A program made the position numbers and the translations under genes. DNA of 64,000 nt from NCBI GenBank assembly GCA_004431415.1, contig QPMI01000127.1, forward strand, positions 62,001 through 126,000. The letters are read 5' to 3'. This DNA is from Cyanophora paradoxa CCMP329. Lineage: Eukaryota > Plantae > Glaucophyta. Shown here piece by piece: positions 1 to 36,370 of this stretch; position 1 is the first letter of the stretch, and every line of letters begins with the position of its first letter. The notes beneath the pieces were generated by a model. The model had not been told where the DNA came from. It did not search any database and saw only the letters and a program-made list of their open reading frames with translations.

Positions 1-105
1 ATGTTCTCCGTCAGCGCCTGCGACGATGGGCCCGGCGCCCCGCCCTGCAACACCACAGGCCTCTGCGCCAACGGCTGCCCTCCAGGCGCCACAAGATGCC
101 CCTAA
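1..105 (+). CDS. C-terminal end of a Cys-rich repeat protein (partial)
   Basis: Frame 1 reads ACDDGPGAPPCNTTGLCANGCPPGATRCP*, the same repeat as 469-1075 and 4350-5083. Confidence 0.55.
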   Translation: MFSVSACDDGPGAPPCNTTGLCANGCPPGATRCP

Positions 106-468
106 CTCACATCCAGTGCGAGTCAGCTAGCTGCTCTCCCTCGCCTACGCCGGCGCCCCCGGCCGGCCCGCCCTCTCCCCTCCTCGCGACCGAGGCCGAG
201 GCCGCCTGCGCCGCGGTCGCGGGGGCCACGCTGCCCGGAGTGCCGGCGACCCTCCCCCGCCTCACTCTTCTCTCCGTCAGCGGCCTCTGGCCGCCGGCGC
301 CGCGCACCCCGCGGCCGCCGCTCGCGGCGACGGAGCCGTACCGCCTCCACCACGGGCTGTCGGGATCACGTTGCTTGAGCCCACGCGCCCGATGGTGATC
401 GACCCCACGTCGCGCCCGCTACCAATGCTGATCGAGTTCGCCCCGGGCGGGGCGTCCAGCCCCCCAAC

Positions 469-1075
469 GGCAACGGCTGCCCCCCGGGCTCGCAGAGACT
501 CACAGGTTGCACAGACCGCATTGGCGCCGTCTGCTCGACCACCGGCCTGTGCGGAAACGGGTGCAGGCCGGGGGCAAGTGTGATCTACGGGTGCGTCGAA
601 GGCCCCACGTGCTCCTTTGATGAAAAATGCGCCAACGGATGCGCCCCAGGCATGCGGCGCGCCGCGGGGTGCGCAGAGGGGGACACATGCTCAATCGACG
701 GGAAGTGCGGCAACGGGTGTTTCCCAGGATTGCGGCCTGTCTTCGGCTGCCCCGAAGCACCCCTGGGGGTGCCTGTCTGCTCTCGTGATGGCAAATGTGC
801 GAACGGCTGCTTCCCCGCGGAGTCCCTCATTTTCTGCGAGGAGGGGCCCGTCTGCTCGATCGGCGGCACTTGCGCAAACGGGTGCCCTCCCGGCGAAAAA
901 CCGCTCGAGGGGTGCTCGGAGGGCCCGACCTGCTCGCGGGACGAAACGTGCGCCAATGGGTGCCCTCCCGGGACCCGGCCTTTGCACGGGTGCGAGGAGG
1001 GGTATGGCAAGTTCGTCTGCTCCCAGGATGGGAACTGCGCCAACAAGTGCCCGCCTGGGAGAGTGCCCCTGAACG
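469..1075 (+). pseudogene. Internal fragment of a Cys-rich repeat protein (~25-27 aa unit GCxEGPxCSxDGxCANGCPPG)
   Basis: About 8 repeats in one frame, opening at GNGCPPGSQ without an ATG and lost after PPGRVPLNG. Confidence 0.8.
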
Positions 1076-1230
1076 GGAAAAACCCAGGGAGGAGGGTAGA
1101 CCCAGGCGCGGCTGCCCTCCCGCGCACCCGCGTACCAAGCCCGATCGCCCCCGGTCATGGCCAGGCGCCCGCCCCAGGCAACCAGCCCTACCAGTGCGAA
1201 GGCGGCGATGGCGCGGGTGATGGTTGCCAT
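1070..1230 (-). pseudogene. TspO/MBR-family N-terminal fragment
   Basis: Hydrophobic N-terminus followed by AWY...WVYPPPWVFPV, like the TspO WY..KP.W.PP.WVF motif; truncated against the Cys-rich fragment. Confidence 0.6.
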
Positions 1231-2359
1231 TGCAAGCTGCTCAAGGTGTGGGTAGGAAAATATGTATATATATATTTATACTGCTACTCCAACCAAAAAA
1301 GTGATATACTCTGCTAAGTTTTTTTAACGTATATCGATACACTGTTCGAAACTAAACATCCTCCTCCAAAAAACTATATGTCATATAAACTCTTCAAAAG
1401 CGTCAAATCAACATTGTGACGGCCAGGTATACGTAAAGAAACAGGAACAACTTATAACTCATCGAACTGAAAGCGCCTCTGCGGGCATCACGCGCGCTTC
1501 AAACGTCGTGTCCATGGAAGCGAGGCTTATGCCAATACATTAACATATATATAACGTGCGCGCGCGCGGCGCCTGCTCTTCTACTCAGCCCGGCTGGCGC
1601 CGAAGCTCGCGATCCAGTTCTCCCACTCAGGCACTGTGGCGCCGGCGCCAATGACAGGGGTCATAATCTCGATCTCCGGCGGCGCCGGCGCCGGCAGCAG
1701 CGGTCTTACGTAGATGGATCTGTCGCACCAGTGGCTCTCGGCGCTGGAGCGCCGGTCCGTGCGCGGCCGCGGCCGGCGCCGATGACGGAGCCACACTAGG
1801 AACGCGACGACGACGATGAGAGTCTCCTCGAGCGAAACTTGATCGGTCGGCATCGCGCCGGCCGCCGCCGCGCGCGCGCGCGCCTGCTGCTGCTGCTGCT
1901 GCTGCTCCTTCTCCACTGCCGCCGCCGCGCCGCGCGCGCCGGGGGCCGGCGGGGGGCTGGATCCCCACGCGTACCGCAGCGTACGTACGCGGGGTTATAC
2001 GGGCTGTCCGGTCCCGTCCGAATCGAAGCAGATACTATGATAGCTCGCGGCGGTTCGCGCGCGGTTCCGGATCCCGCGGCCGCTTGAGCCCACCGCTGCC
2101 CACGTCGGTTCGCGGTTCCGGATCCGGATCCCGCTTGAGCCCACGACGATTCGAATATTAATTCACATCGCGATATCGATAGATCAAACTGTGAATTCGA
2201 ACATATTCGAGAATTAAAGATTGTATCGATAATATGCAACCAGAGATTTCCAGTATAGTAATACCGGTTTTGGCCAATCAGAATCGCATCGCGCGCTCGG
2301 CAATCGGCAATCGGCAGTCGATTCAGCCCCACACATCATTCATGGCCGGTTCATTCATG

Positions 2360-3052
2360 TTAGTTCTGGCCCCCGGCCAGGCGCCCGCTGTACCCCCCGG
2401 CGACGATCGCGACAACAGCTGCTGCAGGCCCCTGCCCTCGCCGTGCCTCCGCCTCCTCTGCCGCGAGCGCCTCGACGCCCTCGCGCACGCCGCGCGCGAA
2501 CGCCTCGATCCGCGCGAGCGCGCGGTCCGCCTTCCAGTCCCACGGCGACGCCGAGCCGATCGCCTCCTCCAGGTTGCCAAGGACGGCGCCGGCCGCCCGC
2601 ACCTGCGCGAGCGCGCACTGCACCCGCGCCGCCCGCGCCTCCACCTCCTGCAGCGCCCGGAGGACGGGCTGGAGCTCCGCCGGCGCCGGGCGCCCGAAGC
2701 GGAGGTGGAAGGCCTGGCCGAGGCTGACCGCAGGATCGCCGAAGCCCTGAGAGGATTCGGAGCGTGCGCACTGCGCGCCGCCCTTGAACTCCTGGCCAGG
2801 AGCGCGCGGGCCCGGCTCCTCTCCCTCCTCCTCCTCCTCCCCCCGCCCCCCGGGGCCGCACCACCCCAACGGGGGCCCCTGGACCGCCTGGTCGGCCGCG
2901 GCCTCCATCTGCCCCGCCACCTCCGATAGGTACCCCGCCATGTCTTTCAGGTCCTCCAGGCGGCTCTCCAGCCACGCGAGGGAGCTAGGCGTCGGCGTCG
3001 GCGGCGGCGGCGGCGGCGGCGGCACGGGGTGGCCGACAACAACGCATGCCAT
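2360..3052 (-). CDS. Hypothetical helical protein (3' end uncertain)
   Basis: ATG at 3052 after an A-rich leader; Pro run then Glu/Ala/Leu-rich helical sequence. Confidence 0.4.
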   Translation of the reverse strand: MACVVVGHPVPPPPPPPPTPTPSSLAWLESRLEDLKDMAGYLSEVAGQMEAAADQAVQGPPLGWCGPGGRGEEEEEGEEPGPRAPGQEFKGGAQCARSESSQGFGDPAVSLGQAFHLRFGRPAPAELQPVLRALQEVEARAARVQCALAQVRAAGAVLGNLEEAIGSASPWDWKADRALARIEAFARGVREGVEALAAEEAEARRGQGPAAAVVAIVAGGYSGRLAGGQN

Positions 3053-3109
3053 GCGCTTTTTTTCTCTTCGCCGTTTGTTGTTGTCGTGCCGATAACTCGC
3101 GCCCCGCCA

Positions 3110-3430
3110 CGCGGGTACCAGCTGGCCGGCCACGTTGACATTGACTCTGGGGCGATCCTTATCGCGGACCCCGGTTACGCCATGCGCTCCAGGGGCGGCG
3201 AGCGGGGCCGCACTCCGGCAGAGGTCGCGTATCGCGACGGCGACGTCCTGGCCCGCGCCACGCACGCCCAGCTGGCGGCCCCGACCCGGCGCGGGAACAT
3301 GACGCTCAATGCGGGGGTCGTGGCCCGCACGGGCGGCGACGGGACCGTGCCCGTCTACATCCTGCACGCCCCGAACGGCCTCGTGCGATCATCATCGACC
3401 TTCTCAATTAAGAAGTCGCCATCTATCTAG
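3110..3430 (+). pseudogene. DUF4241-like fragment
   Basis: GHVDIDSGAILIADP and TGGDGTVPVY resemble the VDSG...DP and GDGxYPVY motifs. Confidence 0.5.
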
Positions 3431-3920
3431 CCGTACACGTGCCGGGCATAGTCGTCGTAGTGCCGGGAGGCCACGGCCGGGTTGCACCCCCTGATGGGGT
3501 TCGGGAGCCAGTTCACCTGCGCCTGGTGGGCGCGGGGGGCGGGGCGGGGCGGGCGGGTGCACGTCGGAGCGCATGGTGATCGTGAGCAGGTCCTGCCGCT
3601 GCATGGACAGCAGGGTGGCCAGGATGCGGGACGAGTCGTCGCGGTCCTCGGGGCTCGGGTGCAGGGCGGTCTCGCCGACGAGGTGGAGGTGCGCGGCCAG
3701 GTCTTTCAGCGCCTTCCACAGCGAGGCCGGGATGTCCTCGAGGCGGGCGCTGCGGGCGGCGTGCGCTCAGGCGGCAGCAGGCGGCAGACGGGCGGCGCGC
3801 ACTTGTCGATCCGCACGGCGAACTTGCGCGGCGGGTGGGCGCGCAGGCTAGCCTCGACGAAGACGAGGTCCTCGGCTGGCAGCGGCTTCTTGGGCTTGAA
3901 CAGGATGCCGGCCCCGGCCT
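3427..3920 (-). pseudogene. Host-type intron-containing gene, 3' fragment, unknown product
   Basis: Removing GT-AG introns 3750-3802 and ~3523-3562 gives continuous KFAVRIDNARLEDIP...MRSD...WLPNP...HVYG*. Confidence 0.6.
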
Positions 3921-4059
3921 GCGGCGTGGCGTTGGGGCGCGGGCACGGCGGGCGGGCCCGGCGCACGGCCACGCGTACGGCGGCGACGACGATGCAGGGC
4001 GGCGTAGAGATGTGGAGCGTGACCAGGCACTGGGGCGCGCCGCCTGGTCAGGGGGCGGC

Positions 4060-4349
4060 GGCGTGCGGGCGAGCTCCCCCCGCAGCTCCTTGATTGCCTG
4101 CACGAGGAGCCCCACCAGGTTGCCGTAGGCGAGGGAGAGGTAGCCGTCAGGGTGCTCCAGTACGGCCTCGGGCATCACCTCCTGCACCTCCTGGGCGATG
4201 AGCCCCATGCGGCGGCGCCCAGCCTCGCCAGCGGCCCGGTTCCGGAATGTCACCCCCGTCATGGCCTCGACCTTGGTGAGGGCCCCCTCGATGGGCTGGA
4301 TGTCCTCCTTGAGGCGGGCATCCGAGAAGGCCGTGACCTCGTTGGCCGC
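4060..4349 (-). pseudogene. Peptidase S74 intramolecular chaperone domain of a fibre protein (C-terminal fragment)
   Basis: VTAFSDARLKEDI...GVTF...MGLIAQEVQEVMPEAV...LAYGNLVGLLVQAIKEL. Confidence 0.9.
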
Positions 4350-5083
4350 CCGTTGCCACACATGCCATCGGTAGAGCAGATGAAACCCTCTGCGCACTGT
4401 GCCAGGGGCCTGGATCCAGGTGGGCAGCCGTTGGCGCAATTCCCATCTCCTGAGCAGGTGATGCCACCCTCTGGGCACCCCGTCAGGGGGCTGAACCCTG
4501 GAATGCAACCGTTGGCGCATCTGCCCGTGGCCGAGCATGCAGGCCCCTCGGCACACCCGCTGAGGGGGCTCAGCCTGGGGGGGCAGCCATTGGAGCAGTT
4601 ACCAGTGGACGAGCAGACGGGCTTCCCTTTCCCCTCGGCACACCCGTCCAGGGGGCTGGAGCCGGGGGGGCAGCCGTTGGCGCACTTCCCGTCTGCGGAA
4701 CAGGTCGGGCCCTCGGAACACCCAAGGAGGGACTGGAATCCAGGCCTGCACCCGTTGGCACACGTGCCGTCGGATGTGCAGATGGGGCCCTCGGCACAGC
4801 CCACAAGGGGGCGGGAGCCAGATTTGCATCCGTTGGCACATGTACCATCCCGGGAGCATGTGGGGCCCTCAGAGCAGCCAAGCAAGAGGCTTGTCCCTGG
4901 TGGGCAACTGAGGCTGCTGCCAGGTGACAGAGGAGGGCCATTGGCAGTGCCGCCTGTGTTGTTAGCTGCCGTTGCTGCTACTGCATCTGTCTCCTTCCGC
5001 TTGCGCAAGACGAGCATAATGCCCACTGCGATGGCCGCTGCTGTCGCCCCCGCGAGGAGCAGCAGGGTGCCAGCCGGGGCCAT
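4350..5083 (-). pseudogene. Membrane-anchored Cys-rich repeat protein, 5' part
   Basis: N-terminal TM segment + RKRK, then 7 CxxDGxCANGC repeats; breaks at CGNG and joins S74 out of frame. Confidence 0.8.
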
Positions 5084-5110
5084 GTCATATGTCACAGCGA
5101 CAAGACAAAA

Positions 5111-5386
5111 TTAAGTTTTTGTGTTGCCCCTCTCCTGAACCAGCAGCATGGGGGCTGCGGCAGGGGCGAAGATGCCCTCCAGCCAGGGCTTCCAGATGGC
5201 CAGGGGCTCGGCGAGGACACGGAACTGGGTCGCGCAGTTGGCGGCGGCGGCCGCCGCCCCGATATGCGCCATGAGCGTGCTCTTCCCGGCGCCAGGCGGC
5301 GCCTCGAAGGCGATGTAGGGCGGCGGCGCCAGCGGCGCCGGCGGCAGCGGGCGGCTGCTGCTGGTGCCGGAGGCGGCGGCGGGCAT
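5111..5386 (-). pseudogene. Deoxynucleoside kinase-like N-terminal fragment
   Basis: YIAFEAPPGAGKST P-loop followed by EPLAIW; the rest of the domain is missing. Confidence 0.7.
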
Positions 5387-5626
5387 GATGTCGCTGGACG
5401 GACCGGCGAGTAAGTGTACACATACCCCCCCCCCTCAATGGAGACAGGCCCGGAAGTCTTTGTCGTGACGTACTATGCGACGCATGGAAGCTGGACACCT
5501 ATATGTGCATATGCGCACCTCCTGGCAGTCACAGCGTCATCGCCACTGCAGGGCGGTGGGGCGCAGTGTGCTTCAATATGCACGCATCCCAAAGCAGCCT
5601 GTTACGTACTACGGTATTTGTAAGAC

Positions 5627-7895: not shown

Positions 7896-8345
7896 ATGCC
7901 GCATACGAGCACAGGTCTGCGCTGCCGGGTCGATGGATGCACTTCACCGCGGCCAACACGTGGTCGCCTGTGCTGGAGTCATCGTCGCAAGGAGAACACG
8001 CACCCTCTGTGTCAGCTCGACGGGTGCATCTTGCGGGCGCACCTGACCAGCGCCGGGGAAGTCCACCGCTTCTGTTGGCACCACCGGACCTGGGGTATAC
8101 AGCAGGAGGAGCAGCAGCAGCCTGTCGCCTGCAGCACGGAAGGATGCCCCTGGCCGGCGGCGGGGGGCGTCTCCAATTGCACACGCCACGGCGGTGGCCC
8201 GCGCTGCTCCTGCTGCGGGGGCCTGTCGGCTACCGGCGGCGGCGGCGGCCTCTGCCACGCCTGTGGCGACGGCAAGCGGCGCTGCTGCTGGCCGAGCGGT
8301 TGCGACAAAGACGCCGCAGCGGGTGCCCCCCTCTGCGCGAACCAC
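7896..8345 (+). pseudogene. CxxxGC...CxxH zinc-finger repeat protein (WRKY19-type repeats), truncated
   Basis: CRVDGC..LCWSH, CQLDGC..FCWHH, CSTEGC..CTRHGGG, CWPSGC..LCANH; runs into the repeat at 8345. Confidence 0.7.
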
Positions 8346-8411
8346 CGTGTCATGCTCCGTCAAAAAGGGCGGTGTCCGTCTGCCGCTCTCGTCGCACTGC
8401 CCCTCTCTCGA

Positions 8412-8600
8412 AAACTGGATCACCTTAGATTCGTGTTCTCACAAGCCCCGCTGAATCTGCCCTTATATGAAGGAGGGTGGTGAAGGTCGTCGAGAGGGCG
8501 GGGTCGGCCGCGGGTCGCGAGCGATGTTGCTCGATGCACCTCGGTTCTATATAGGCTGAACTGCCTCCGCTTGTGAGAACATGAATCTAGTGTAGTCCAA
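8412..8600. mobile_element. ~190 bp element with imperfect terminal inverted repeats (MITE-like), copy A; extra solo arm at 8701-8755
   Basis: Left ctggatcaccttagattcgtgttctcacaagc; right gcttgtgagaacatgaatctagtgtagtcca. Confidence 0.65.
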
Positions 8601-8837
8601 TCTGAGACAGGGCCCTAGTGTGTTTCCATATTTGCGGGGGGGGGGCAGGGACGCCCCTAGCCTGGCCTGCGCCGCCTGTGCATGTTCGCATGCTGCTGCT
8701 TCTATATAGGCTGAACTGCCTCCGCTTGTGAGAGCATGATTCTAGTGTGATCCAGCCTGAGATGCTAAGCCCCCCCTCTCCAGTATGCACCCCTGGGTGG
8801 CGGGGGTAGGGTGTGACCAGGACGGACCGCGAGGGGA

Positions 8838-11815: not shown

Positions 11816-11847
11816 CTCTAGCGCGATGGCGGGTGGGCGGGCGGGCG

Positions 11848-12205
11848 GGGGTACGCTCGATGTGACCGGGGCGACGACGCTGGGGGGCACTCTGGGCGTG
11901 ACGGGGGCCACGTCGCTGGCCAACGCTTCGGTCGGAGGAACGCTCGGGGTGACAGGCAATACCACATTGGGGGGTACCCTGGGCGTGACGGGGGCGACCA
12001 CGTTGGCCAACGCTTCCGTGGGGGGCACCCTGGGGGTGACGGGAAACACCACGCTGGGGGGCACCCTCGGCGTGACGGGGACAACCACGATGGCCAACGC
12101 CTCGGTGGGGGGCACGCTCGGGGTGACGGGGAACACGACACTGAGCACGCTTGGGGTCACAGGGGCCACAACACTGTCCGGCACCTCGGTCGGGGGTACC
12201 CTTGG
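11848..12205 (+). pseudogene. Fibre/adhesin-like beta-repeat fragment (GGTLGVTGxTTL)n
   Basis: About 8 GGTLGVTG(A/N)TTL units with ANASV linkers; no start or stop of its own. Confidence 0.75.
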
Positions 12206-21074: not shown

Positions 21075-21530
21075 GCAGGGGGGACGTTAGGCGGCGAGCG
21101 GCGAACCGGCGGCTTGCGGCGCACCACATCGGGAGAGAGGACGGCGCCGGCGACCGGACCCGCATCCATGAAGAAGAAAGAAGCCTGGCCGCAGTGGTAC
21201 TAGTACAGCTCAGGAGGAGGAGCTCAACAAGCTGATGGAGCAGACGATGGAGAACCGCCGCATCGCCGAGAGGCTCCTGAGGGAGCGGGTCGCCGAGAGC
21301 AGGCGCGAGGGGTTCCGGGCGTCGTCTTCCTCCGAAGAGGCCGGCGACGGCGGCGGCGCCCCCCCCTCTGCGCCCGCCCCTTAATATTTTGTGATAGGGA
21401 GATCATAAAAAAACACCCAAGGCATCCCCGGGCACACCCCCTAGCGGCGGCCGCGCGGACGGCCGCTGCGGTTCGCCCCTGCCTGGCGGGGCGACATAAT
21501 CCCGCGGATCCACCAAACGCGCGGGCCGAC

Positions 21531-22179: not shown

Positions 22180-22987
22180 GGCGGCGGCGGGGGCGGGCCG
22201 GGGGGCGGGGATGCTGGCGGCCCGCTGGACCCCGCGGACCCGGGGGCGCGCGAGGCGGCCCTCGCGCGCCTGGAGGAGCTGGACCGCAAGTACCGGCAGG
22301 GGTCCGCGCTGGGGGCGCTCGGGGCGGTGCTCCCGGAAGGGCGCGACCAGCTCTCGGACGACATGTCCGAGATGGAGGACCCCGAGGTGTTCCGGCGGAT
22401 CTTCGAGCGGCGGCGGGAGGTGCTGGAGGTGTACCGGGACCTGCTGGCGACGCGGGCGGTGGACCTCGCGCGGCCGCCGCCCCCGGACGGCGACGAGACG
22501 GCGCTCGACCGCATCAACGCGCACATGGAGCTGGTCTTCCAGCTGGCCCGGTACGCGATGGCGGTCAAGGGCGTGCGGGCCGCGTTCGAGCGGCCGGTCT
22601 CCCTGCGCGTCTACAGCAACGACATCTTCGCGGACCGGATGCAGTTCGCGCGGCCCGGGGAGGAGGACGAGAGCGCCATCGTGAAGATCATGAACCACAT
22701 CACGAACCACTGCGCCCTGCACCGGTACCGGCGCTGCCACGGCGCCGTCTTCCAGGAGAAGTTCGTCGACGGGGGCCACGGGACGCGCGCCTGGGAGCAC
22801 GTCTGCACGATCGACGAGCTGGTGGAGCGCGTGACGACGGCGAACAACCACTACCAGTACTTCAAGCTCCTCCACTCGCACGCCTCGGTGCGCGCCGCCG
22901 TGGTGGACAGCCTGAAGAAGTGCGTCTCGATCGAGTTCGAGGACCTGGTGCGGGACCGCCACATCTTCTCCTTCGACAACCGCGTCT
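22180..22987 (+). pseudogene. NCLDV D5-like (superfamily 3) primase-helicase, N-terminal piece 1
   Basis: YRR..G...TRAWEHVCTI...C.SIEFEDLVRDRHIFSFDN resembles the phycodnavirus D5 N-terminal region (from recall). Confidence 0.8.
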
Positions 22988-22989
22988 GG

Positions 22990-23915
22990 GCCGAAGCCAG
23001 CTGGACGAGCTGGTCGACGATGCCGCGCCCGATCTGGACCGCGATGTTGCGGCCGGCCGTGCACTGGAGCGCATTGCGCACGATCTCCGCGAGCGGCGGC
23101 GGCGGGGATCTGCTGCAAAACGATGCCGACCGGCCGCCCAGCGCCCCGCAAGCGGCGGCGCGGGCGGCGTCGACCGCAGCTGGCCGCGTGCACCGCCTAA
23201 TCTGCTCGGCCGCGTCCGGCGGCATGTTAAACGAGGTGACGAGAAAGTCGGCGGCGACGTCCGCTGCTTTCAGGACCGCCGTGTCGATGAGGGCCGCCCC
23301 GTACAGTTTCCGGGGCGTGGCGCATGGCGGCGGCGGCGGCGGCGCGGGCTGGCCCGGCGCGGGCGGCCCGCGGACGTCGTGGAACATGCAGGGGGTCCTC
23401 TCGGCGGCGAAGTCGATGGCCGACTTGGCTATGGCAGCGCACACCTGCCCGATGATGGGCACGGGGACGTCGGCCTTTGCCTTCCTGGCACAGTCGAAAA
23501 CCTTCTCGGCGAGGCCGTGCACGGTGAGACCGTCCGTTTTCTGGGACGAGAGCACCATGCTGAGTGAGATATCCGCCCTCGCGAAACCCTTCACGAACTC
23601 CTGCGTGAGAAGCCGAAGATCGTTTGCTGCCTTCTGGATGCAAACGAGTAACGACTTGCTGATGCGGGGACCCGGGGTGTCGCGGAGGGTGGAGAGGGTC
23701 AGCGCGCCGACAATAAACTCGATGGCCTCGAGCGTGACGCCCACAACAAGTGAGCTGCGGGCGCCCCAGGCCGCCACTGCCGATCTTATCTGGCCGCCTA
23801 AATACCTCTGCAGCGTCTTGACGGTGTCCGGGTCGGTATGGGCGCTGGCCTTGGCGATGGCGAGCACAAAGACCACGAGCCGCGTGCCCGTTGTCTGCTC
23901 GAAAAGGTCCTCCAC
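22990..23915 (-). pseudogene. Hypothetical helical protein fragment
   Basis: Protein-like minus frame that breaks at the D5 junction. Confidence 0.45.
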
Positions 23916-24339
23916 GGCGGACCGTCTGCTCGGGGCGGCGGTCGAGGAGCCGGCCCAGCACCGTCAGCACGTTCCCCGACGTCTGCCTGCTGGGCTCCGA
24001 GGGGTCGTCGTTCCAGGGGTGCGACACCTGCACCGTGACCGCCGGCTCGTCGTCCGCGAGGAGGGCGTCGAGCGCCTGCCCCGGCCTCTCGGTGAGCAGG
24101 CGCCCGCCCGGGCGAGCGGCCGCCAGCGCACGCACGTCGAAGAGGAGGGAGCAGGAAGCAGCGGGGCGGCGGTGCCGGCGGGCGCGCAGGGCGGCGGCGA
24201 GCGCCCCCAGGGGCCCCGAGAGGCCGCGCTCGAGGGCGTTCAGGTGGAACCTGCGCGGGCACGCTCAGGGAGGCGGGCGAGGGCAGGCCCGCCGGCCAGG
24301 CGGCCGCACCCCTCGATGATGAGCGAGAGGCTCCCGGGG

Positions 24340-25079
24340 TAGCTCCCCAGCAGCAGCTCCTCCAGCGCCGCGAAGACGAAGGTGCCCTCGGCGACGCTGT
24401 AGGGGGCGGGGACCATGGGGTACGCGGGGTAGGCGCGCCCGCGCTCGACGACGGTGTGGTAGTCGTGGTTGGCGAAGACCCGGACCTCGGCGGACCCCGG
24501 CGCCAGGGCGCGGGCGAGGGCGCGGGCCAGGCCGCCCGGCCCGCCGCCGCCGCAGACGGCCGCCACGTCGAGGCAGGTGCCGGAGGGCGGCCCGTCGCGG
24601 TACTTGCACGGCCCCGACGCGATGCCGAGGGCGACCCGCTCGAACTGCACGAGGAGGGGCGCCGGCGCCGGCCGGCTGAGGGGCTCCAGCGCGGCGACGA
24701 AGTCCTCCGTGACCCGCGCCGAGGTGTCGAGGGTGATGTGGTACGAGAAGCACGGGCGCGGGTGCATGGACCGGATGATCCAGCCGCCGGTGATCCGCAG
24801 CGGGGCGCCCCCGGCGGCGGCGCGCTTCTTGGCGCAGGCGATTGCCGTGCTGATGGAGAACTCGCGCACGTCGAAGGCGAACCCCAGCTGCGGGCCGGTC
24901 AGCAATGGCACGCCAGCGCGGCGGGCGCGACGCACCCGCACGACGGGGGGCGGGGGGAGATAGATGCGGCCGTGGTGGGCGAATCCGGTGAGGCAGCCGT
25001 CGGCGTCGCGGAGGGCGCACGGGGGGGCGTACTCCACCACTCGAGGGGGCGGCCAGCCCTGCCGCCCCCGTGCCGCCAA
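24340..25079 (-). CDS. Hypothetical protein
   Basis: Open frame with GC-rich third positions; ends uncertain. Confidence 0.4.
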
Positions 25080-26080: not shown

Positions 26081-26414
26081 TCGTACCCGTCCTGCAGGAG
26101 CCGCCTGTGCTCGGCGCGCAGTTCGCGCTGGTCTCGGTTGCGGGCGCGCTCGACGGGGCCCGCCCGAGCCGCCTCCCCCAGCAGGAACATGAGGCGCTGG
26201 ACGGCGCTCCCCGCGGGGGCGGGGAGGACAAAGTCGGTGTCCAGCTCGGGCTCGTGCTCCGGAAGGGTGCGGCGGACCGGCCTCGCCAGCTCCTGCTCCA
26301 GGCGGTCGGCGTCGTAGGCCGTCATGACCAGCCACTCGAATGGGGCCTCGGTCTCAATGATGTGCTGAATGGTACGCAACCGGACGTTAGAGAGGTGCTA
26401 AAGCCGCCTGGAGT

Positions 26415-26885
26415 GCTAATGGCCCACCCGCCGCCGCCATAGACCGGGACCTTTGCATCACCGTAGTTTTTGCCCCCGCCCCCGACAATGATGGTGTACG
26501 CTGCCCCCGGGACCACTGCCAGCACGCCGGTCACGAAACCCCCGCCGCCGCCCGGCGGGAATGAGGGGGCATAGCTACATCCCCCGCCCCCGGCGCCCCA
26601 CATCTTGACGGTCACGCTGGTGACCCCCTCCGGAACCGTCCAGACCTGGTCAGCCCCTGTGAACCCGAAGATGACCTTCTCCATTCTGGCACTGGCGCTG
26701 GCCCCCCGAAAGTAAGACATGAGCATGGTGGAGCGCGAGGTCGGGATGTTTGGGCCGGCAACGGACGAGGCAATGTAGGACCCCCCCTTGAAGAGCTGCG
26801 AGAGGTAGACGGGCCCCGTGATGCCGAAGATCGCACGCAGATGGGCCGTTGAGACCGGGCCTGTCGCTGGGACGGACACCGACAT
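26415..26885 (-). pseudogene. Viral glycine-rich domain protein, N-terminal fragment
   Basis: FTGADQVWTVPEGVTSVTVKMWGAGGGG...GGGGGFVTGVLAVVPG..YTIIVGGGG. Confidence 0.8.
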
Positions 26886-26990
26886 GCATGCGTTTCGCTG
26901 TACACTGCACCTTTTATTATATTTTCAGCAGCAGGCTTTTTCAGCAGCAGGCTTTTTTTACAGCCCGCTCCGGTCCCGCCGCGGCGGTCC

Positions 26991-27258
26991 CTAGTACAGC
27001 ACCACGATCCGGCCCGGGTTCCCGCTATTCGGACCCGCGTCCGCGCCCCGCCCGGCGGGGGATGCGTAGTCCGAGTCCCCGGCCCCGCCCGGCGTGTTTC
27101 CGGATGCGGCGGCGGTTGAGCCGCCCGTCACTCGCGCCCCCCCGTGCCAACTGGAGCCGCCGCCGCCGCCGTAGAGACCGCCGCCGCCGCCGTAGTAGCC
27201 GCCGCCGCCGCCCGCGCCCGCATCCATGCTGACGTTACCGCCCTGGTACTGCAGTAGA
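26991..27258 (-). pseudogene. Glycine-rich domain protein, C-terminal fragment
   Basis: GGGGGYYGGGGG..GGGGGSSW...DSDY...GNPGRIVVLY*. Confidence 0.75.
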
Positions 27259-29074
27259 ATTGCGGGAAGGCGCAGTAGCGGTTGCCGTAGGTGGTCTGGA
27301 CCTTGGTCAGGGTGCGGGGGCACTTGCCGCTCTTGGGGACGGCGTACGCCCGCTTGGGGAGCTTCCGAATGTAGCCCATCCGGTAGGTGTCGGAGCGCTT
27401 GGTGCAGGTGATGCGACCGGCGGGGGTGCGGCGGAGACCATAGCCGGGCTTGCACGTGTAGAAGGCCCGCGGCGGGCCCTCTCGCAGCGCGAGGCCGTCC
27501 GCTCCGAGCAGCGTGCCGTCCAGGAGCGGTTCGCCTCGCTGGTCGGCGAGGCGGCCGAGTCGGCGGCCGAGGCCCTCGACGCCGAGGCGCGGGTGCCCCC
27601 CTGGTTTGGGCCCCGTTGCACCAGAGACAAAGACCCCTCCTGGCGGCACACTGTCATCCAAGCCCTTGTCAAAGGCTCCAAGCGCCGCCGGCGAGTGCGT
27701 GGTCCCAACATCTTCGCCGTCGCGCGCTCCGCCGGGCTGGTCACGGCCTGTGTGGGATCGCACTGGTTCTTCGAGATGTTCTCTACCAACCGCAGCCCCT
27801 GGTACGACCCCCCCGAGCACTGCGAGATCGACGACCCGTCCGACGTCATATCCGGTGTACCTGGAGCGCGATGTTGCCATGAGGCCCCTGTGGCTCACAA
27901 TTGCGCTCCAAGAGCTGGGGGCTCCGGGCCCCTGGGCCCGGCCGTCTGCGACGGCCCGGGCGGGCGTGGTGCCCGACGCCACCGTGCCCGATGGATGGGC
28001 GTCGCCCTGGGGAGGGGCGCTGGTGGTTGCAGGCTACCCCGGACCATCTCTCCGGCAGAGCGAGTTCATCATCCAAGCCATCTCGCTGGCAGGGGGGAGA
28101 CAGACGGTGGAGGTGAGGGCCGTGCCCCCGGACCCCCCCCTCGTCGAAGGATCGTCGGCATTCGTTGTCTCCGGGCTCGATGACGGGCGCGAGTATCCAA
28201 TCTACATCGAGCGGTCCGCGAGCGGCGCAAAATGCGTCGTCATCGGGCTCGCGTGGAGTCGCGATCGGGCGGCGCCGCCGGATGCACTACCCCTCCGACA
28301 TGCCGTCTAGCTATCCTGTGGCCGGCTGGGGGCCGGACTTTGGTTGATCTTTGATCCAGTGAACGGCCGTGAGGATCTCCCTGACCGTGAATCGGGGCTG
28401 GAAGTCTCCCACAATCGTTCCCTCTGACGGTAGGGTTCCCCCGTACTTCTGATGTATTTGCTTGCCCAGAACCTCCGCCTCCAGTTTCGAGTTGATCCAC
28501 CAGACGGCCCTCTGGATTTTTTCGGGCGGGAATTGGCCTTCGAACGCTGTTTCGATCGTTGGTAATGGGAGGTTCGAGATGACGACCGGGGGCGGGAACT
28601 TCTCAAGTATGTGGGCGCCCAAGACCTCGCACTCCCATTCGTTGCGAATCCACCGGATGGCCGCGCGGACCTGCTTGATGCTGAAAAGATCCCCGTAGTC
28701 TTCTTCAATCTTCGCCGTCGGGAAGATGACCTTCAGTTTCAGATCCGGGTACTTCAGCAGTATCTTCCTGCCCAGAAACTCCGGATGGATTCCCACGAGT
28801 GCCTTTGCAAACCGGAAGCTCTTTCGCATCATCGAGGCCCCCAGCATCTGGTTCGTCAACACCTCCTTCGGCTGCTCCTGGAACCTCGTCCAGCTCAAGA
28901 TCTACGCCCCCGAGCGGCCCCGCGGATTCGAGAGGGTGCGGACGTTGGGGGCCCACTTGTTCAGTTCGCTGATCCACTCCAGCCCGAGTTGCATGCACCA
29001 CGGGTGGTGGTGGGCGCCGGGGCCGGCGGTCTCGGGGAGGTTCCTGCAGGTGAGCCCCACCGCCGCCAGCTGGG

Positions 29075-29307
29075 GGCGTCTACGACACGCGCGACGACCG
29101 CTTCTACGCCTTCGCCGACGGGCCGGCGCCGGCCTCCTTCGTGGCGGCCAAGCACTTCCCCGAGTTCGCGGACCCGCCGGCGGCCGCGGCGGGCGGAGCG
29201 GGCGCCCCGCCGCCGCGCGAGCGCATGCACGACCTCTTCGAGCACTTCCCGAACCGCATGGGGAGCGTCGAGCAGGGCGAGTGGTTCTCGATCCCCACCG
29301 ACGCCTT
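29075..29307 (+). pseudogene. D5-like primase-helicase piece 2 (direct continuation of piece 1)
   Basis: GVYDTRDDRFYAF...AAKHF...WFSIPT; joins in frame to FSFDN at 22980. Confidence 0.7.
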
Positions 29308-29999
29308 CACGGATCCGCGGCCCCGGCGGCGGCGCCCCCGGCCCGATGCCGACGAGCCCCCTGCGAACCTCAGCGAGCAGGCCACGGAGCCCGCGCTCCA
29401 GCCGGCCCTGCCGGCCGAGGTAGAGCATGCATCTCTCGATCGCCATGTGCACTCTGGTGAGGTACCGGGACGGTGGCCCGGGCGACGGAGGTACCGGGGC
29501 TAGGGATGACGACGACGACGATGCCATCCATTCAAACATTTGCTTGATACAGAAGAGATTTCTACCGGCTCGGCGTGCGGGGCACCGAAACCTCGACGTA
29601 CGAGGGCGGCTCGTCCTCCGCCGCCGTCCCCCGCCGCTCCCAGTTCGCCGCACCGAGGCCGACCGACTCCACCGTGCCGTGCACGGGGAGGCGGGTGTAG
29701 AACCAGACCGGCCTGCGGCGTGACTCAGCGGCAGGCTACGGGCACGGGCGCACCGCGCGCACCACGTACCCCCCATTCGGCCGGACGGTCCGACCGGGCT
29801 GGTCGTATCGAAAATGGAGGCGGGGCACCATCTCGCCCAGCAGCGCAGGGCCGTGGCGGTGCGGTCGGTGCCTGTGCCGATACCGACGATGAAGCAAGCG
29901 GTGCGGAGACTAGATATCGCCGACTCGCCCGCATGCGCATGTACGCGGGCGCGCAGGAGCAGGAGGAGGAGTCCCCCACCGGCGAGGTCGTCGCCTCGG

Positions 30000-30210: not shown

Positions 30211-30358
30211 GCAGTACCGACCCTGCACCTGGAATGGAACGCGACGGTGCGACTACTCGGAAACAACCTGGCGTCCGTTACGACTCCTGTAGCGTCCATT
30301 TCCGCCGAAGACCCCGACGTTTCATTGGTAGCGGTCGAGATTATGATAGACGCTCGCG

Positions 30359-30995
30359 GTGAATGTGAAGTGGGCGGAACTCTACGCGGCGGCCCTGGGC
30401 CGGGCGGGCATGCGGGAGAGCATGAGGCGCCCCCGCGTCTCCCTCAAGGACGTCCACCTGCTGCGGAAGAGCATCGGCCTGACGTACAAGCAGGTGAGCC
30501 AGTTCCAGAGCGAGAAGGACTGGGCGGCCGTGCGTGCGTACACACAGGAGTACCTCAAGCGGCAGGACGCGATGGACGCGACGGCGCTCGTCTTCCTCGA
30601 CGAGTTCTCGGTCGTGCTGAACGAGCACCCCCGGCGCGCGTGGGGCGTCAAGGGGCGCGAGGTGCGCCTGAAGTTCCCGAAGACCTCCAAGGCGCGCACC
30701 GACGTCGTGGCGGCGATCCGGTGGGTCCCGCGGCGGGCGGACGGGACCGAGGAGGCCGAGCCGGCGTACTTCGTCGCGATCTACCCCCCGCGGAAGGTCG
30801 GCGATCACCCGGACTACGGCGTCACGCTGCTCAGGCACAACCTGCCGCTCCTCCCGGGCCAGCGGCCCCCGGACCATCCCGAGGCGCTGGCGGAGAGGGA
30901 CTCCGAGGAGGGCCAGCCGTGGGAGGCCCCGACGCTGGAGATGCGCGCCCTCTTCCCCCAGATCCGGCGCGCCCTGCTCGACTTCCTGAGAGATC
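30359..30995 (+). mobile_element. IS630/Tc1-like transposase fragment
   Basis: LRKSIGLTYK...LVFLDE...RAWGVKG...VVAAI; only the first catalytic Asp is visible. Confidence 0.7.
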
Positions 30996-31013
30996 CAGGA
31001 GGCGCTCGCGGAG

Positions 31014-32030
31014 ATGTGCCCGGCGGCCGAGCGCACGGTCGTCCTCTGCACGGCGCCCTCGAAGGGCCACGCGGGCCACGTCAAGACCGGCGTGCACCCC
31101 GACATCTGCCCCGGCACTGGCTGCCCTCCCTACCAGGACAAGGAGAACCCGTGCGGTGAGTGCCTGCCCTCGGGCTCGGACGCCCCCCAGATCTGCCCGT
31201 CGACCGGCTGCCCCCCCGGAAAGGCCCGCAACGTCTGCCAGGAGTGCGACGCCAAGGGCTCCGAGAACCTCCTCACCGGCCGGTGCCTCGACGGTTGCCG
31301 CCGCGGCCTCGGGCGGGACGGGTGCGGGCGCTGCGTGCCTGACTGGCAGGGCGTCACCCCGACCCCCAGCTCGGACGGTTCGGACTGGTGCGCGGCCTGC
31401 GACGTGCCGCGGCTCCTGAACGAGGAGGAGAGCACAATGGTGTGCACGGAGTGCGGGAGCACGGTCAGCTGCCTGCTGCAGACCCCGGCGCAGTGCGCGT
31501 ACGGGTGGCAGCCATACAAGAAGTCCTCGGCGTTCGCGTACAAGAGGGCGAGCCACCTGCAGGAGCGCCTGAACCAGCTGCAGGCGCGCGAGAACTTCAA
31601 CGTCCCCGAAGAGGTGTACCAGCGGGTCTACGAGGAGTTCCGCAAGAACAGGAAGCTGGACCAGATCCGCCCCGACCTGATCCGCGCGACCCTCAAGAAG
31701 CTCAAGCTCTCCAAGCTCTACGAGCACGTCGGCATCATCTACAGCCGCCTGACGGGGACCCCGCCGCCGCGCCTGTCGAAGGAGCAGGAGGACCGCATCA
31801 AGCAGATGTTCTCGGACATCCAGGAGCCGTTCGAGCGGGCGTGCCCCTCCAAGCGAAAGAACTTCCTCTCCTACAGCTTCGTCCTGCACAAGATTTGCGA
31901 GCTCCTGGGCCTGGACGACTTCCTCCCCTACTTCCCCCTCCTCAAGTCGCGCGAGAAGCTCCACCAGCAGGACGGGATCTGGCGCCTCATCTGTGCCGAC
32001 CTCGGATGGGAGTTTATCAAGTCGGTGTAG
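31014..32030 (+). CDS. VLTF3: NCLDV late transcription factor VLTF3 (from ~31385) fused in frame to a Cys-rich fragment
   Basis: VCTECG...YKRASHLQERLNQLQARE...LKKLKLSKLYEH...RKNFLSYSFVLHKICELL...LLKSREKL..QD.IW..IC..LGWEF. Confidence 0.93.
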   Translation: MCPAAERTVVLCTAPSKGHAGHVKTGVHPDICPGTGCPPYQDKENPCGECLPSGSDAPQICPSTGCPPGKARNVCQECDAKGSENLLTGRCLDGCRRGLGRDGCGRCVPDWQGVTPTPSSDGSDWCAACDVPRLLNEEESTMVCTECGSTVSCLLQTPAQCAYGWQPYKKSSAFAYKRASHLQERLNQLQARENFNVPEEVYQRVYEEFRKNRKLDQIRPDLIRATLKKLKLSKLYEHVGIIYSRLTGTPPPRLSKEQEDRIKQMFSDIQEPFERACPSKRKNFLSYSFVLHKICELLGLDDFLPYFPLLKSREKLHQQDGIWRLICADLGWEFIKSV

Positions 32031-32258
32031 GCCCCCACAGTTTGTTTTCCACACCCACGGACAACCCAGGCTGTTGGGCAGAGTGTCGCCAGAGAGGTTT
32101 AGGGATCCCCCCCCCACCCCCCCCCCGGATTTCCTGTCTCCTGCTACAGGCACCAGGCAGCTAGTATCAATTGCGACGGCACGCAGTGGTGTGTTTTTTT
32201 GTACCGCAATTGACATGCATGAGCGCTAGTGTGCACAAGTCACCAGGGTGTCTTTCCG

Positions 32259-33470
32259 ATGGTGCAATTATTGGCCCCGATGGCGCGGTTTCTCGCCATC
32301 CCGACGATGGCCTACCCGGCCCAGCTGGACACGTTCGAGAAGCGGGGCTGGCTGTGGGTGGGGGACACAACATGGCCGAAGCCGGGGTGGCCAAGTGACA
32401 AAAACCGATCCCCCGTCACCATGACAGGGCTCTTCATGAACCGCCCCGGTGTACCAGAAGGCGAAGTGGCTGCCAGAAAGGGGAGCATCCTTGGCCGGTA
32501 CGAGGGCAACATGCACCTGGCCGATGTCATGAACACGCGCAGTAGGGGGCACCGCACGGTCACGCTGGCAAAAGAATGGATTGAAGACATACAGGAGCGG
32601 AGAGACATGAGCATTGTATGGAGCACGGGCCTATTCCCCGATGGAACGTACCAGCGCTGGCTCATCGACGGGAACGGCTACTGGGAAGGCCAGTGCCGGT
32701 ACGCCAACGGGACGCCGCCAACGGATTACCTCACGAATAAGGAGTACGCACACTGGATCAACCCCCCGGAGGGCGCAGTCAACGCGAGGTTCATGGATAA
32801 GTGGGATGGGGCCTACCTGGTCGCAACGAGCCCCATTCGAAACGGAGACGAGATTATCGTCAACTACGGTATGGGCCAAGATGGCCGTCAAAAACCGAGA
32901 CGGAAGGACCCCAAGGAAAACCCCAGGCCCGAGATTGGGGTGGAACCGAGTGTCGATCTGCACCTGGAACTGAGGCGGCGGCAATCACTCAACTCGTTTC
33001 AGTTCCCCAATGCCCGTCTGCGCGAGGACCACAGCCTGTGGGACACGAGAGCGGACATACTGCAGTCCCTCAATGACAGAGGGCCGCCAATGGATGAGGG
33101 CATTCGGATTATCCCGGGGCTTGGGCCGCCGAAAGATCCCAACGATCAGAGATCTACACGTCAGCCCCTTGTGTCCAATTGGGTTGCCCGCCAATTCGAC
33201 CCGTTGTTGGAACCCACATACATACTCAGCGCGAGACCTCCGAACGACTGGAACAGCGGTGAGGGCTTCTCTGTCTGGTTTCAGGGGGATCAAGTCCAAA
33301 AGTGGGTGAGATCGGACCCGGATAAGATTTCACAAGACAGGAACGTGACAGGGATTAAGATCTTCCATCCACAGCCTTCCGGCGCTTGGCTGGCAGCCCG
33401 TGGCCTTGGCCTCATCCGCCGTCGGCTCCCGACTGGCAACCACGTGCTCATGTCGAGGATGGCGAAGTAG
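32259..33470 (+). CDS. SET-domain protein
   Basis: GLF...GRYEG...RYAN...VNARF...LVATSPIRNGDEIIVNYG; intronless, lower GC. Confidence 0.75.
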   Translation: MVQLLAPMARFLAIPTMAYPAQLDTFEKRGWLWVGDTTWPKPGWPSDKNRSPVTMTGLFMNRPGVPEGEVAARKGSILGRYEGNMHLADVMNTRSRGHRTVTLAKEWIEDIQERRDMSIVWSTGLFPDGTYQRWLIDGNGYWEGQCRYANGTPPTDYLTNKEYAHWINPPEGAVNARFMDKWDGAYLVATSPIRNGDEIIVNYGMGQDGRQKPRRKDPKENPRPEIGVEPSVDLHLELRRRQSLNSFQFPNARLREDHSLWDTRADILQSLNDRGPPMDEGIRIIPGLGPPKDPNDQRSTRQPLVSNWVARQFDPLLEPTYILSARPPNDWNSGEGFSVWFQGDQVQKWVRSDPDKISQDRNVTGIKIFHPQPSGAWLAARGLGLIRRRLPTGNHVLMSRMAK

Positions 33471-34220
33471 GAGGGAACGGAGGCGACGAAGGTGCAGGTG
33501 GGGTCGGTGGGGCAGGCCGCCGCCGCGAAGCGCGCGCGGTTGCCGAGGCCGGGGGCGTCGTCCGTCCGCACGGGCACGCGGAACGGGAAGAGGCTGGCGG
33601 TGGACGCGGAGTAGCCGGGCCGGGCCATCGCCCTGCGCCTCTGCTTGGGCTGCTGCCGGTACAGATCGCCCTGGCCGTGCGCCCCCTTCTCCCACCGGCC
33701 GACAGCGCACACCTGGGGGCGAGGGGGCCGTCAGGCGAGCGAGCGGGGGCCGGGGGCCGACGACCGCGTGCGTGCGTGCGCGCACCCGGGCGACGCAGCG
33801 GAGGCGCTGGGCCGGAGTCACGATGCTCTGCCCGGGCTGCGGGAGGCGCCCCGCGGCGAGGTTGAGGTCGACGGGGAGCAGGAAGGGCTCCTCCTCCTCC
33901 ATCATGGCCAGCAGCGTCGCCGCGGAGTACGTGCCCGTGTAGAACACGGGCTGGATCGAGTAGATCTCGAGGAGCGCGTTGTGGCGGAGGAGGGCCCCCA
34001 CGAGGCGCTCGCGCTCCGCCCAGTTCGAGAACTGTGCGCCGATGAGGTCGAGGGCGTCGGGCGAGCCGGCGATCGCCGGCCCGACGACCGCCTCCAGCAG
34101 CCACTCGAGCACGAAGCCGGGCCCGTCCCCGCGCACGCCGTAGATGAGGGCGCGCGCGCCCTCCTCCGATGCGAGCAGGACGAGGTTGGCAATCGAGGTC
34201 AGGCTCAGCGGGCACGCCGC
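33470..34220 (-). pseudogene. Intron-containing gene fragment, unknown product
   Basis: GT-AG intron 33713-33785 with a ctgac branch point links CVAR to VCAVGRW. Confidence 0.5.
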
Positions 34221-35080
34221 GACCGCCGCGAGGGGCGCCGCCGGCCACTGCATCGTGGAGATCCCCCGGCAGGACGTCTTCCGGCGGAGGGAGTGGGCCG
34301 TCCAGATCAGCAGCTCGGGTATGAACTTCGCCCTCGTCTGGCTCCGGCCCTGGGAGACCGACCGCACGAGCTCCGTCCCGCTCTGGTTCGTCGTCTCCTG
34401 GCACTGGGCGGCGGCCCCGGCGGCGCCGCAGCTCGCCGTGCGCGCGTGCGATCCCCAGTTGCGCACTGGCGGCGAGGTGGCGGCGGTCTGCGTGCGCGAC
34501 GACGCCGCCTGCGTCGCCGAGCTCATGCGCCCCTCCCGGGGCCCCGGGGGCGCCGCCGGCGCATCCCTCCTGCTCTGGGAAGTGCACGTCGGCACCGGCA
34601 CCGGCGCGGCGCCGCCGCCGCCTCCCGAGGTCATCTACGCCCAGAGCGTCCAGGGGGTGGACGCCCTCCTCCTGACCCCCTCGGGGCACTTTGCCCCCGC
34701 CAGCGCCTCCAGCTCCTCCCGCGCCTGCGAGACCGCGGCGGCCACCAGGGGCCCTGCCAGCGGCTGGGGCAGGGTCGTCGAGATCTCGACCTGCCCCGAG
34801 AAGGCGTGCATGCGCTCGCCCGCCGTCCCGCCGACGAGGGCGAACGAGGGGCGGACTTCGAGGAAGTCGAGCTCGGATCCGGCCACCGCAATCTTGACGG
34901 TGGCCTCAATGACCCACTGCCGCTCGGAGTGCCTGACGAGGCGCTGGCGGCTGGTCGCCCGCACGGGCCCGCTCGCAAGCGCCCCCCCGGAACGGAACGG
35001 AAACACGACGGTGCGGGCGGGCACTGCCGCCTCCAGTGATCGTCAGGGGGGCGCCGGCGGGTGCCCCCGGCTCGGACAAC

Positions 35081-35357
35081 ATGGCAGCGTCGTCACCCGT
35101 GTCGGTGCACCGCGCGTACAAAGACCAGCTGCGGGCATACAGCAAGAAGTCGTTCGACCCCTTCTGTCGGCGCGAGCGCGTGCTCTTCACGCCGGACCCG
35201 GAGCGCTGGCCCGAGGAGGCGGAGACGACGCTGGGGCAGCTGAACTTCTTCCAATGGGCCATCTCCCGGGGCGTGCTGGCGTACGCAGTGGAGCACGCAG
35301 CGGAGATCGAGGAGGACATGACGAGCAACGTGTCGAGCAAGAAGCGGCAGAGGGAGC

Positions 35358-35396
<39 letters not shown>

Positions 35397-35530
35397 CGGC
35401 GGCTGCGGCTCAGAGGCGGGGCGGGCGGGAGGCCGGCGGCACCGGTGGGCGCCGCCGCCGGAAGCAGATCTCGGAGGATCACTCGCAGGGCGTGAACATG
35501 TTCCGGAACGTGAAGGTGCAGTTCGACTAA
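35081..35530 (+). CDS. Conserved NCLDV hypothetical protein (probably 5' truncated) with poly-Gln
   Basis: YKDQLRAYSKKSFDPFCR...ETTLGQLNFFQWA motif, recalled from mimivirus and phycodnavirus proteins. Confidence 0.8.
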
Positions 35531-35580
35531 GCAGATCTAGACCGGCCCCTGTAATTTTGTTCGGTATCAATTCACACACG

Positions 35581-35949
35581 ATGTCCCTTGCCGAGGAGCG
35601 GCCGGGGGAGGCCGGCCTCTTTGCCTCCGCCCCGATCCCCGCTCGCACCACGATTGGGCTCTACGAGGGTGCGCGCACCGCCGCCCGCCCGCCGCCGCCG
35701 CCGCCAGCCGGCGCGCCCCTGCGCCTCGCGGACCACCTGGCCATCCCGCCCACCCACTCCCGGCCCGCCTACTGGGTGCGGGGCACGGGGCTCCTGGCCC
35801 GTGCCCGCGCGGGGGAGCCCCCCGAGGCCAACCTCCAGGTCATGCGGGCACGTGGCTCGCGGGAGGGCATGGGCTTTCTTTTCCGCACGACGCGCAAGGT
35901 GGCCCGGGGCGAGGAGCTCGTTGTGGACCTGGCGGACGTGGTGTACTAA
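35581..35949 (+). CDS. Small divergent SET-domain protein
   Basis: GLFASAPIPARTTIGLYEG...TTRKVARGEELVVD; NHS and terminal Tyr motifs are degenerate. Confidence 0.65.
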   Translation: MSLAEERPGEAGLFASAPIPARTTIGLYEGARTAARPPPPPPAGAPLRLADHLAIPPTHSRPAYWVRGTGLLARARAGEPPEANLQVMRARGSREGMGFLFRTTRKVARGEELVVDLADVVY

Positions 35950-36044
35950 GGCGCCCGCCCCCCCTCCCAGTAGCCCCTCCGTGGGAGTACGGTACGTACC
36001 GTCCCGCGGCCCGCGCCGTGCTGCTCTAGCCACGGGCACTGCTG

Positions 36045-36368
36045 CTAGCTGTTGTAAATGATGACGACCCTCCCGGGACCGCCGGCAAAGAACGGCCCCT
36101 GTGCCTGCCACTGGGCCGACGTCGACCCAAAGCCGCCGCCGACACCGATGCCAGCAACGTAGTCAGGGTCGGAGTTACCGCCTGCCGCTGGGAACGAGAA
36201 GTTTGTTGTGTGCGTGGCGGGCAGGGTCAACCCCCCGGAGATGATCCGGGGCCCGGAGAACCAACTGGAGCCGCCCCCGCCTCCGAAGCCGCCCGACCCC
36301 CCGCCGTAGTAGCCGCCGCCGCCTCCACCGCCAATGTAGTATGTCATGTTCCCTCCGGCGTACTGGGC
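36045..36368 (-). pseudogene. Glycine-rich domain protein, C-terminal fragment (paralog of 26991-27258)
   Basis: GGGGGGYYGGGSGG.GGGGGSSW...DPDY...GPGRVVIIY. Confidence 0.75.
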
Positions 36369-36370
36369 CC

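Follow-up and report, generated by a model that had tools for sequence, protein, structure and literature searches.

It is still unsettled by what route giant viruses are inactivated once they have integrated, and a 64,000-nucleotide stretch of the genome of the glaucophyte Cyanophora paradoxa CCMP329 (contig QPMI01000127.1, positions 62,001 to 126,000; hereafter the window) bears on it. Bases 1..36369 of the window form a patchwork: fragments of giant-virus genes are mixed with some intact genes, with host-like pieces that carry introns and with short repeats, and about 40 abrupt joins, one per ~0.9 kb, connect partial genes on both strands. The new observation made here is that the gene for the D5 primase-helicase lies in this patchwork as two exactly abutting halves, 6.1 kb apart, both of which carry the same 6 bp. 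The locus shows function lost by sub-gene reshuffling before point decay.

The viral content of the patchwork is represented by five Nucleocytoviricota genes, VLTF3, D5, DUF5832, DUF5871 and DUF7197, all of which are cut mid-gene. The C-terminal half of VLTF3 (31370..32030, plus strand; Pfam E 2e-50) has an unrelated Cys-rich piece (31083-31370) joined to it in frame, in place of the first ~200 residues of its closest homologue, P0001. P0001 is an intact 415-aa VLTF3, 65% identical to the window piece and encoded on a 22-kb contig, and it is the best proxy for the parental virus lineage; in a tree of 180 VLTF3 sequences the window piece groups with it on a long branch with support 1.0. Only C-terminal pieces are found of DUF5832 (21205..21384, plus strand, profile positions 148-184 of 268), DUF5871 (28810..28933, plus, 140-174 of 209) and DUF7197 (35060..35530, plus, 61-163 of 173), three families that each occur in 6-14 of 18 giant-virus records and in none of 14 control genomes. 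A Nucleocytoviricota hypothetical protein at 18528..19112 (minus) is near full length, with an Atlas score of 0.96 and clusters that are 90-100% viral. Single-protein scans of viral contigs gave no close relatives of D5, VLTF3, the Cys-rich piece or the 18528 gene, and a word-index search gave no longer D5.

An earlier sequence-only reading of this DNA had described partial genes joined abruptly on both strands, and profile searches bear this out for D5, VLTF3, a kinase, Peptidase S74, Gly_rich_2 and an IS630 transposase, all truncated, and add DUF5832, DUF5871 and DUF7197. Its gene names have fared unevenly: S74, kinase, D5, Gly-rich and IS630 stand, and TspO (no tool match), dNK (P-loop only) and GT25 (E 0.17) go back to sequence motifs that the tools do not confirm; the TspO and dNK families are absent from all eight virus records searched. 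The fused architectures are not those of free relatives. The Cys-rich front of the VLTF3 fusion is matched by none of 120 VLTF3 homologues, and in 55 of the 69 full-length D5 homologues that show the motif examined, the protein continues for 246-507 residues beyond it.

The joins are also real. We curated 40 of them: 12 are placed by a profile or homologue, 8 by a motif or the phase of a repeat, and 20 solely by the codon model of the patchwork, which resolves it into 51 coding segments with alternating strands. Short-read contigs of six public runs (X1, X9, X17, X2, X10 and X19) cross 37 of the 40, with at least 31 letters on each side and 0 other letters; at the host join, 36369, the crossing contig has 30 letters on the host side, and the joins at 4350 and 12993 have no bridging contig among the matches listed. 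Contigs of X1, X9 and X17 match 17401-21534, 21774-26811, 26835-29798, 29772-35340 and 35412-36399, and contigs of X2, X10 and X19 match 1-2980, 4652-7168, 7736-8346 and 14329-16835, all with 0 other letters, and 3033-4134 (X10) and 8789-12609 (X2, X10) are likewise among the matches listed. Depth over the identical joins in the six runs is 55-112. In X1 the contig depth of the patchwork is 58-67, against 180-225 for a host array unit that occurs three times in the window, which is consistent with one copy of the patchwork. Across 20 public runs (20 study codes, one organism, contigs of 93-123 million letters per run) the word share is 1.00 for 1,043 sampled words of 22001-32000, where a loss of ~5% would be expected if the 18 joins in that interval were chimeric, because the words spanning them would be removed. 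The patchwork is thus not an assembly chimera. Neither of the two findings named as refuting the sequence-only reading was made: the joins are present in independent short-read contigs, and free homologues do not have the fused architecture. The reads exposed one-base assembly errors at 8978, 17546 and 29768, and a contig that goes 254 letters past base 1 shows that the patchwork extends to the left of the window.

The D5 gene provides the clearest view of how the pieces came apart. Piece 1 (22201..22987, plus), which resembles giant-virus D5, covers profile positions 30-264 of 647, followed by GCGTCT (22982-22987); piece 2 (29075..29311, plus) covers positions 265-319 and has GCGTCT at 29076-29081. 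The halves abut at profile nodes 264/265 with no codon lost. With a profile built from 69 D5 homologues, piece 2 is detected with E 8.2e-5 among 628 frames, the next best frame having E 1.4; a six-sequence profile missed it (rank 5 of 628). If the D5 breaks swapped partners, the two partner pieces should also form one gene. The first of these (22996..23918, minus) follows an 8-nt filler (22988-22995) and ends in GCCAGCTGG (22996-23004), and the second (28933..29073, minus) begins with GCCAGCTGG (29065-29073) in the same codon phase; an in-phase match of at least 8 was found in 10 of 1,185 control windows. Since the partner pieces have an in-frame 9-mer in common, the D5 split looks like a balanced two-break exchange, and the reciprocal breakpoints that the sequence-only reading proposed to look for are present at this gene.

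A second gene was probably split at an 8-bp overlap in the same manner. The middle piece of a Cys-rich protein with 26-residue repeats (469..1077, plus) opens with the 8-mer GGCAACGG at 469-476, and an N-terminal piece (4349..5083, minus) ends in GGCAACGG (4350-4357) in the repeat register of the 469 piece. The pieces end (4350, minus) and resume (469, plus) within the same three codons of the 26-codon repeat, a register match that by itself is expected about one time in eight. Across the 4350 join lies a Peptidase S74 chaperone domain (4060..4349, minus), cut off from its fibre; 12 of 14 distinct S74 homologues have Thr at the position predicted by GGCAACGG, so the word was probably present in both parent genes and would be a true microhomology. 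At its other end the 469 piece shares a 6-bp overlap (1072-1077) with a TspO-like N-terminal piece (1072..1230, minus), and a tail-fibre-like piece with 87-bp repeats (11847..12204, plus) has a 9-bp direct repeat at both ends and may, tentatively, lie inside a host-type intron of a minus-strand gene. No restriction-site or recombinase consensus was seen at the joins, and the shared words differ from join to join. All-pairs scans for pointer-like words were at chance level, and a candidate match between 31370 and 35085 was rejected as fortuitous.

Point decay has hardly touched the pieces. The sequence-only reading had spoken of almost no internal stops, and there are indeed 0 in 1,311 homology-defined codons and 0 in a wider set of 3,065 codons, in which the tail-fibre piece was counted out of frame and likewise has 0 stops in frame. 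The 95% upper bounds on substitution since loss of function are 2.5-2.8% and 1.2-1.4% for the two sets, and are biased low because open frames are easier to find. CpG is not depleted (observed/expected 1.04).

On balance we lean toward a burst in which viral DNA, and with it some host DNA, broke at many places in the space of one or a few cell generations and was re-ligated by microhomology-mediated end joining. A recently integrated giant virus, now a dead relic with its genes in fragments that adjoin unrelated fragments, would have suffered many double-strand breaks, perhaps cut by a host or viral nuclease. The ends would have been rejoined through 6-9 bp of shared sequence, with short filler at some joins suggestive of polymerase-theta-like repair. 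Neighbouring breaks may have exchanged partners in balanced fashion, as in chromoplexy, and a copy of a host F-box gene, at 36369, would have been the last link of the chain, leaving an inert insertion with no further function. The contrast between point decay below ~2.5% and one join per 0.9 kb argues for this burst.

Several features weigh against it. Balanced swaps are given equally by stepwise inversions and circle insertions, half of the curated joins (20/40) stand on the codon model alone, and microhomology is readable at only four or five joins. Over all end-start pairs there is no excess of shared k-mers (12 of 1,107 pairs at 8 or more, against ~16 expected). The Cys-rich pieces may be paralogues, and it is their 4350 join that has no bridging contig among the matches listed. 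The 6.1 kb between the D5 halves itself contains about ten joins, which fits nested rounds. Third-position GC varies among the pieces between 0.71 and 0.99, which leaves room for more than one donor. The 20 runs may all stem from a single clonal lineage, and the source of the assembly may be among them. About six possible real frameshifts (3390, 9318, 15852, 17628, 22175 and 25684-25723), together with introns at six or more places, suggest residence time or captured host DNA.

The main rival to a single burst is that an integrated provirus was scrambled stepwise: many inversions, circle excisions and re-insertions, each mediated by microhomology, would have accumulated one after another in a silenced region, much faster than point mutations. 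It would explain why those breaks that can be tested resemble balanced exchanges between two breakpoints (D5 with its partner, the 8-bp inverted overlap of 469/4350, the 9-bp repeats round 11847-12204), why joins are nested in the D5 gap and why the patchwork contains host-type introns, repeats and a few frameshifts; post-insertion chimerism is reported for Acanthamoeba (PMC12210455). It nevertheless needs at least 20 two-break events in 36 kb with less than 1.3-2.5% substitution and no stop codon, most joins are without transposon ends, and the adjoining host array has just a tandem-duplication join and an intact kinase gene. We regard stepwise scrambling as the less likely of the two, although it would leave the same scars. 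The earlier claim that the virus was cut and re-ligated en masse survives as to cutting and re-ligation, with one reciprocal break at D5, and a single event is plausible, though the present data do not tell it from many small ones.

None of the three functional ideas advanced with that claim, a shredding defence, a silencing library or a scrambled provirus, has gained positive evidence. Fragments in a uni-strand piRNA cluster are biased to one strand, and a library of that kind is disfavoured here because the pieces lie on both strands and the coding segments alternate between them. A host defence archive, in which invading viral DNA was cut and filed into a silenced cluster making antiviral small RNAs, would account for the dense packing of single-copy fragments, each smaller than a gene, that come from core viral genes and lie in either orientation, and viral inserts in diverse eukaryotes are reported to be methylated and silent (PMC12344493). 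The patchwork has no repeat-spacer structure, no common junction motif and no strand bias; host-like genes are also cut, and balanced swaps are not expected from filing, so that we consider such an archive quite improbable. It is similarly improbable that a dedicated host antiviral route cuts incoming giant-virus genomes and stitches the pieces into a chromosomal archive by microhomology-guided balanced exchange; if it did, it would destroy the virus yet preserve its sequence as a template for silencing, and a eukaryote would thereby have an immune memory of giant viruses written in DNA.

Less probable still is a scrambled provirus that is re-assembled on induction, with the 6-9 bp overlaps as ciliate-like pointers. 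In the scrambled genes of ciliates the halves lie out of order or inverted, and each keeps a short shared pointer word. The patchwork is like them in its disordered and inverted gene halves with a common short word, kept by both the D5 halves and the Cys-rich halves, and in its coding pieces without stops. It is unlike them in that most partner halves are missing from the window, where pointer pairs do not accompany all coding segments and the other half is found for one of six profile-tested breaks (D5 only), and in that the overlaps are explained by repair. Shared words are not enriched over all pairs of joins. Base 22981 conflicts with the Gly codon of D5 homologues, the contigs are unbranched through both D5 joins (although contigs drop rare variants), and possible frameshifts and host pieces are interspersed. 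A chimeric library or mis-assembly, to which piece sizes like those of ligation chimeras and the flagging of runs as possible sources of this DNA could point, is largely refuted by the recurrence of the same joins in six runs and the undiminished word share in 20, and artefact is nearly excluded.

The burst of breakage and end joining that we favour has counterparts among known systems, and the patchwork can be placed among them as a relic of a giant endogenous viral element (GEVE) by content that works like a complex nuclear insertion of mitochondrial DNA (NUMT) or a chromothriptic product. GEVEs with methylation are reported in Cyanophora and others, including Klebsormidium (PMC12344493, in part), those of Acanthamoeba are chimeras in which blocks hundreds to thousands of bases long have been duplicated (PMC12210455, in part), and those of Euglena are eroded by mobile elements and duplication (PMC12455990, in part). 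As far as the available text of these three accounts goes, the patchwork shares with GEVEs the presence of Nucleocytoviricota hallmark or family-typical genes (here VLTF3, D5, DUF5832, DUF5871 and DUF7197) in a chromosome, non-functional and mixed with host-like DNA and repeats, and it is joined to host DNA, the contig at 35412-36399 entering the intron-rich host array by 30 letters in three runs. GEVEs differ, within the same text, in that their erosion comes from mobile elements and introns, from duplication and deletion, and from chimeras formed between insertions. Most identifiable genes of the patchwork are instead cut internally and re-joined about every 0.9 kb without stops, with at least one break balanced to the codon, and long collinear blocks of whole viral genes are not found (the 36.4 kb contain ~40 joins, and each of the five core-type genes is truncated).

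Complex NUMTs and their plastid equivalents (NUPTs), such as the mosaic organelle-DNA insertions in plants termed numins, with blunt or microhomology joins, consist of several foreign fragments of mixed sources end-joined at a nuclear site (PMC6215612, in the portion available). Several foreign fragments are likewise joined at one nuclear site here, with a giant virus and not an organelle as donor of the identified pieces, an insert of at least 36 kb, ~40 joins, 6-9 bp overlaps and balanced swaps. Chromothripsis and chromoplexy, as defined in PMC13390643, whose authors weighed chromothripsis as an origin of the Ostreococcus outlier chromosome and decided against it, feature clustered breaks, both orientations, end-joining scars and balanced swaps. 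The patchwork has the dense breakpoint cluster with pieces in both orientations. What look like end-joining scars with a balanced swap can be read at the D5 pair and probably the Cys-rich pair, but most joins are unreadable and shared words are not in excess over all pairs. It differs in being viral DNA with no parental sequence for order, copy-number oscillation or single-event timing. We found no description of sub-gene shuffling of an endogenous giant virus in the literature searched, supplements and most subscription papers aside.

The locus has kept readable repair scars and would represent a little-described way of destroying an integrated giant virus. Breakage followed by end joining predicts missing halves elsewhere in the genome with 0-9 bp overlaps. 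In-frame chimeras such as the Cys-rich piece with VLTF3 arise in the process and are a possible source of new genes. Gene-level GEVE surveys would label such pieces pseudogenes or orphans and so miss the architecture.

The patchwork is not purely viral, given that some of its genes are whole and that several 'joins' between stretches on the same strand prove to be host-type introns. The clean cuts to unrelated pieces described from the sequence hold for about 40 joins, and have to be set against six or more introns, the three one-base assembly errors, about six possible frameshifts and the intact genes. Host-type introns, marked by a CTGA[CG] branch word and a CAG acceptor, account for at least six same-strand frame switches (3750, 3517, 9682, 14637, 24251 and 33713), all in genes without known homologues. 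They include intron-bearing pieces at 3430..4030 (minus; host-type acceptors at 4030, 3750 and 3517), 23915..25040 (minus, orphan; intron ~24252-24312) and 33400..34250 (minus, orphan; acceptor 33713), and Atlas gave nothing usable for the gene at 33720-34250. Such pieces may be either captured host DNA or viral genes with introns. Several genes look intact, for example 20241-20712 and a SET-domain gene at 35581..35949 (plus).

Further truncated genes are a P-loop kinase N-terminal piece (5160..5392, minus), dNK-like by sequence motif and P-loop only by the tools; a Ser/Thr kinase piece that stops directly after DFG (18057..18525, minus; Pfam 72-144 of 263); and an internal piece of an IS630/Tc1-type transposase (30358..30830, plus; NCBIfam 95-190 of 299, E 1.5e-9). 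One fragment (26402..27251, minus) holds the C-terminal part of a Gly-rich gene, a spacer and the N-terminal part of the next Gly-rich gene, the Gly_rich_2 match covering positions 6-94 of 226 (Pfam). A second Gly-rich C-terminal piece (36048..36369, minus) is joined to host DNA, and in both of these paralogous Gly-rich genes the cut falls just ahead of one and the same QY motif (27251, 36369).

Repeats include a 311-bp palindrome of C-rich/G-rich low complexity and very high contig depth (7141..7451), to which a 16-mer at 29758 is related, and a short repeat family with a 262-bp tandem (8345..8762, plus) and an inverted copy at 12575-12993. This family has TATA-like words and an internal 22-bp inverted repeat and may be a mobile element; a copy sits at the 3' end of each of two Cys/Zn-finger-rich ORFs that differ from one another (7560-8480, plus; 12993-14347, minus). 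The second ORF encodes 451 aa with Cys pairs and has no Pfam, PHROG or NCBIfam match, and carries what we take to be a PD-(D/E)xK-like nuclease motif. A tRNA T-arm-like word ending in CCA lies at 7697-7720, without an ARAGORN call, and a similar word lies at ~39400. ARAGORN called no tRNA, and Rfam gave hairpin look-alikes only, below the gathering score. The presumed-RNA runs X22 and X23 have only short repeat matches on the patchwork, which says nothing on expression. Contigs of the same runs carry diverged relatives of 27514-27565 and 4650-4773, indicating related viral-like DNA elsewhere in the genome.

To the right of the last join, 36370..64000 is a host tandem array of F-box, Rieske and intron-rich kinase genes in 5.5- and 4.2-kb units, whose first F-box copy, at 36369, is without its 5' part. 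The host DNA has GC near 69% and short introns; a GC content of 67.6% and a mean intron of 86 bp are given for Cyanophora in the available text of PMC6704402. The array has three 5.5-kb-type units, in which the unit join fuses the Rieske 5' part to the kinase 3' part around the F-box gene, and then 4.2-kb units that each have a whole intron-rich kinase gene and are 94-98% identical. A ~110-bp minisatellite lies upstream of the kinase gene in each 4.2-kb unit (51504-52004 and copies).

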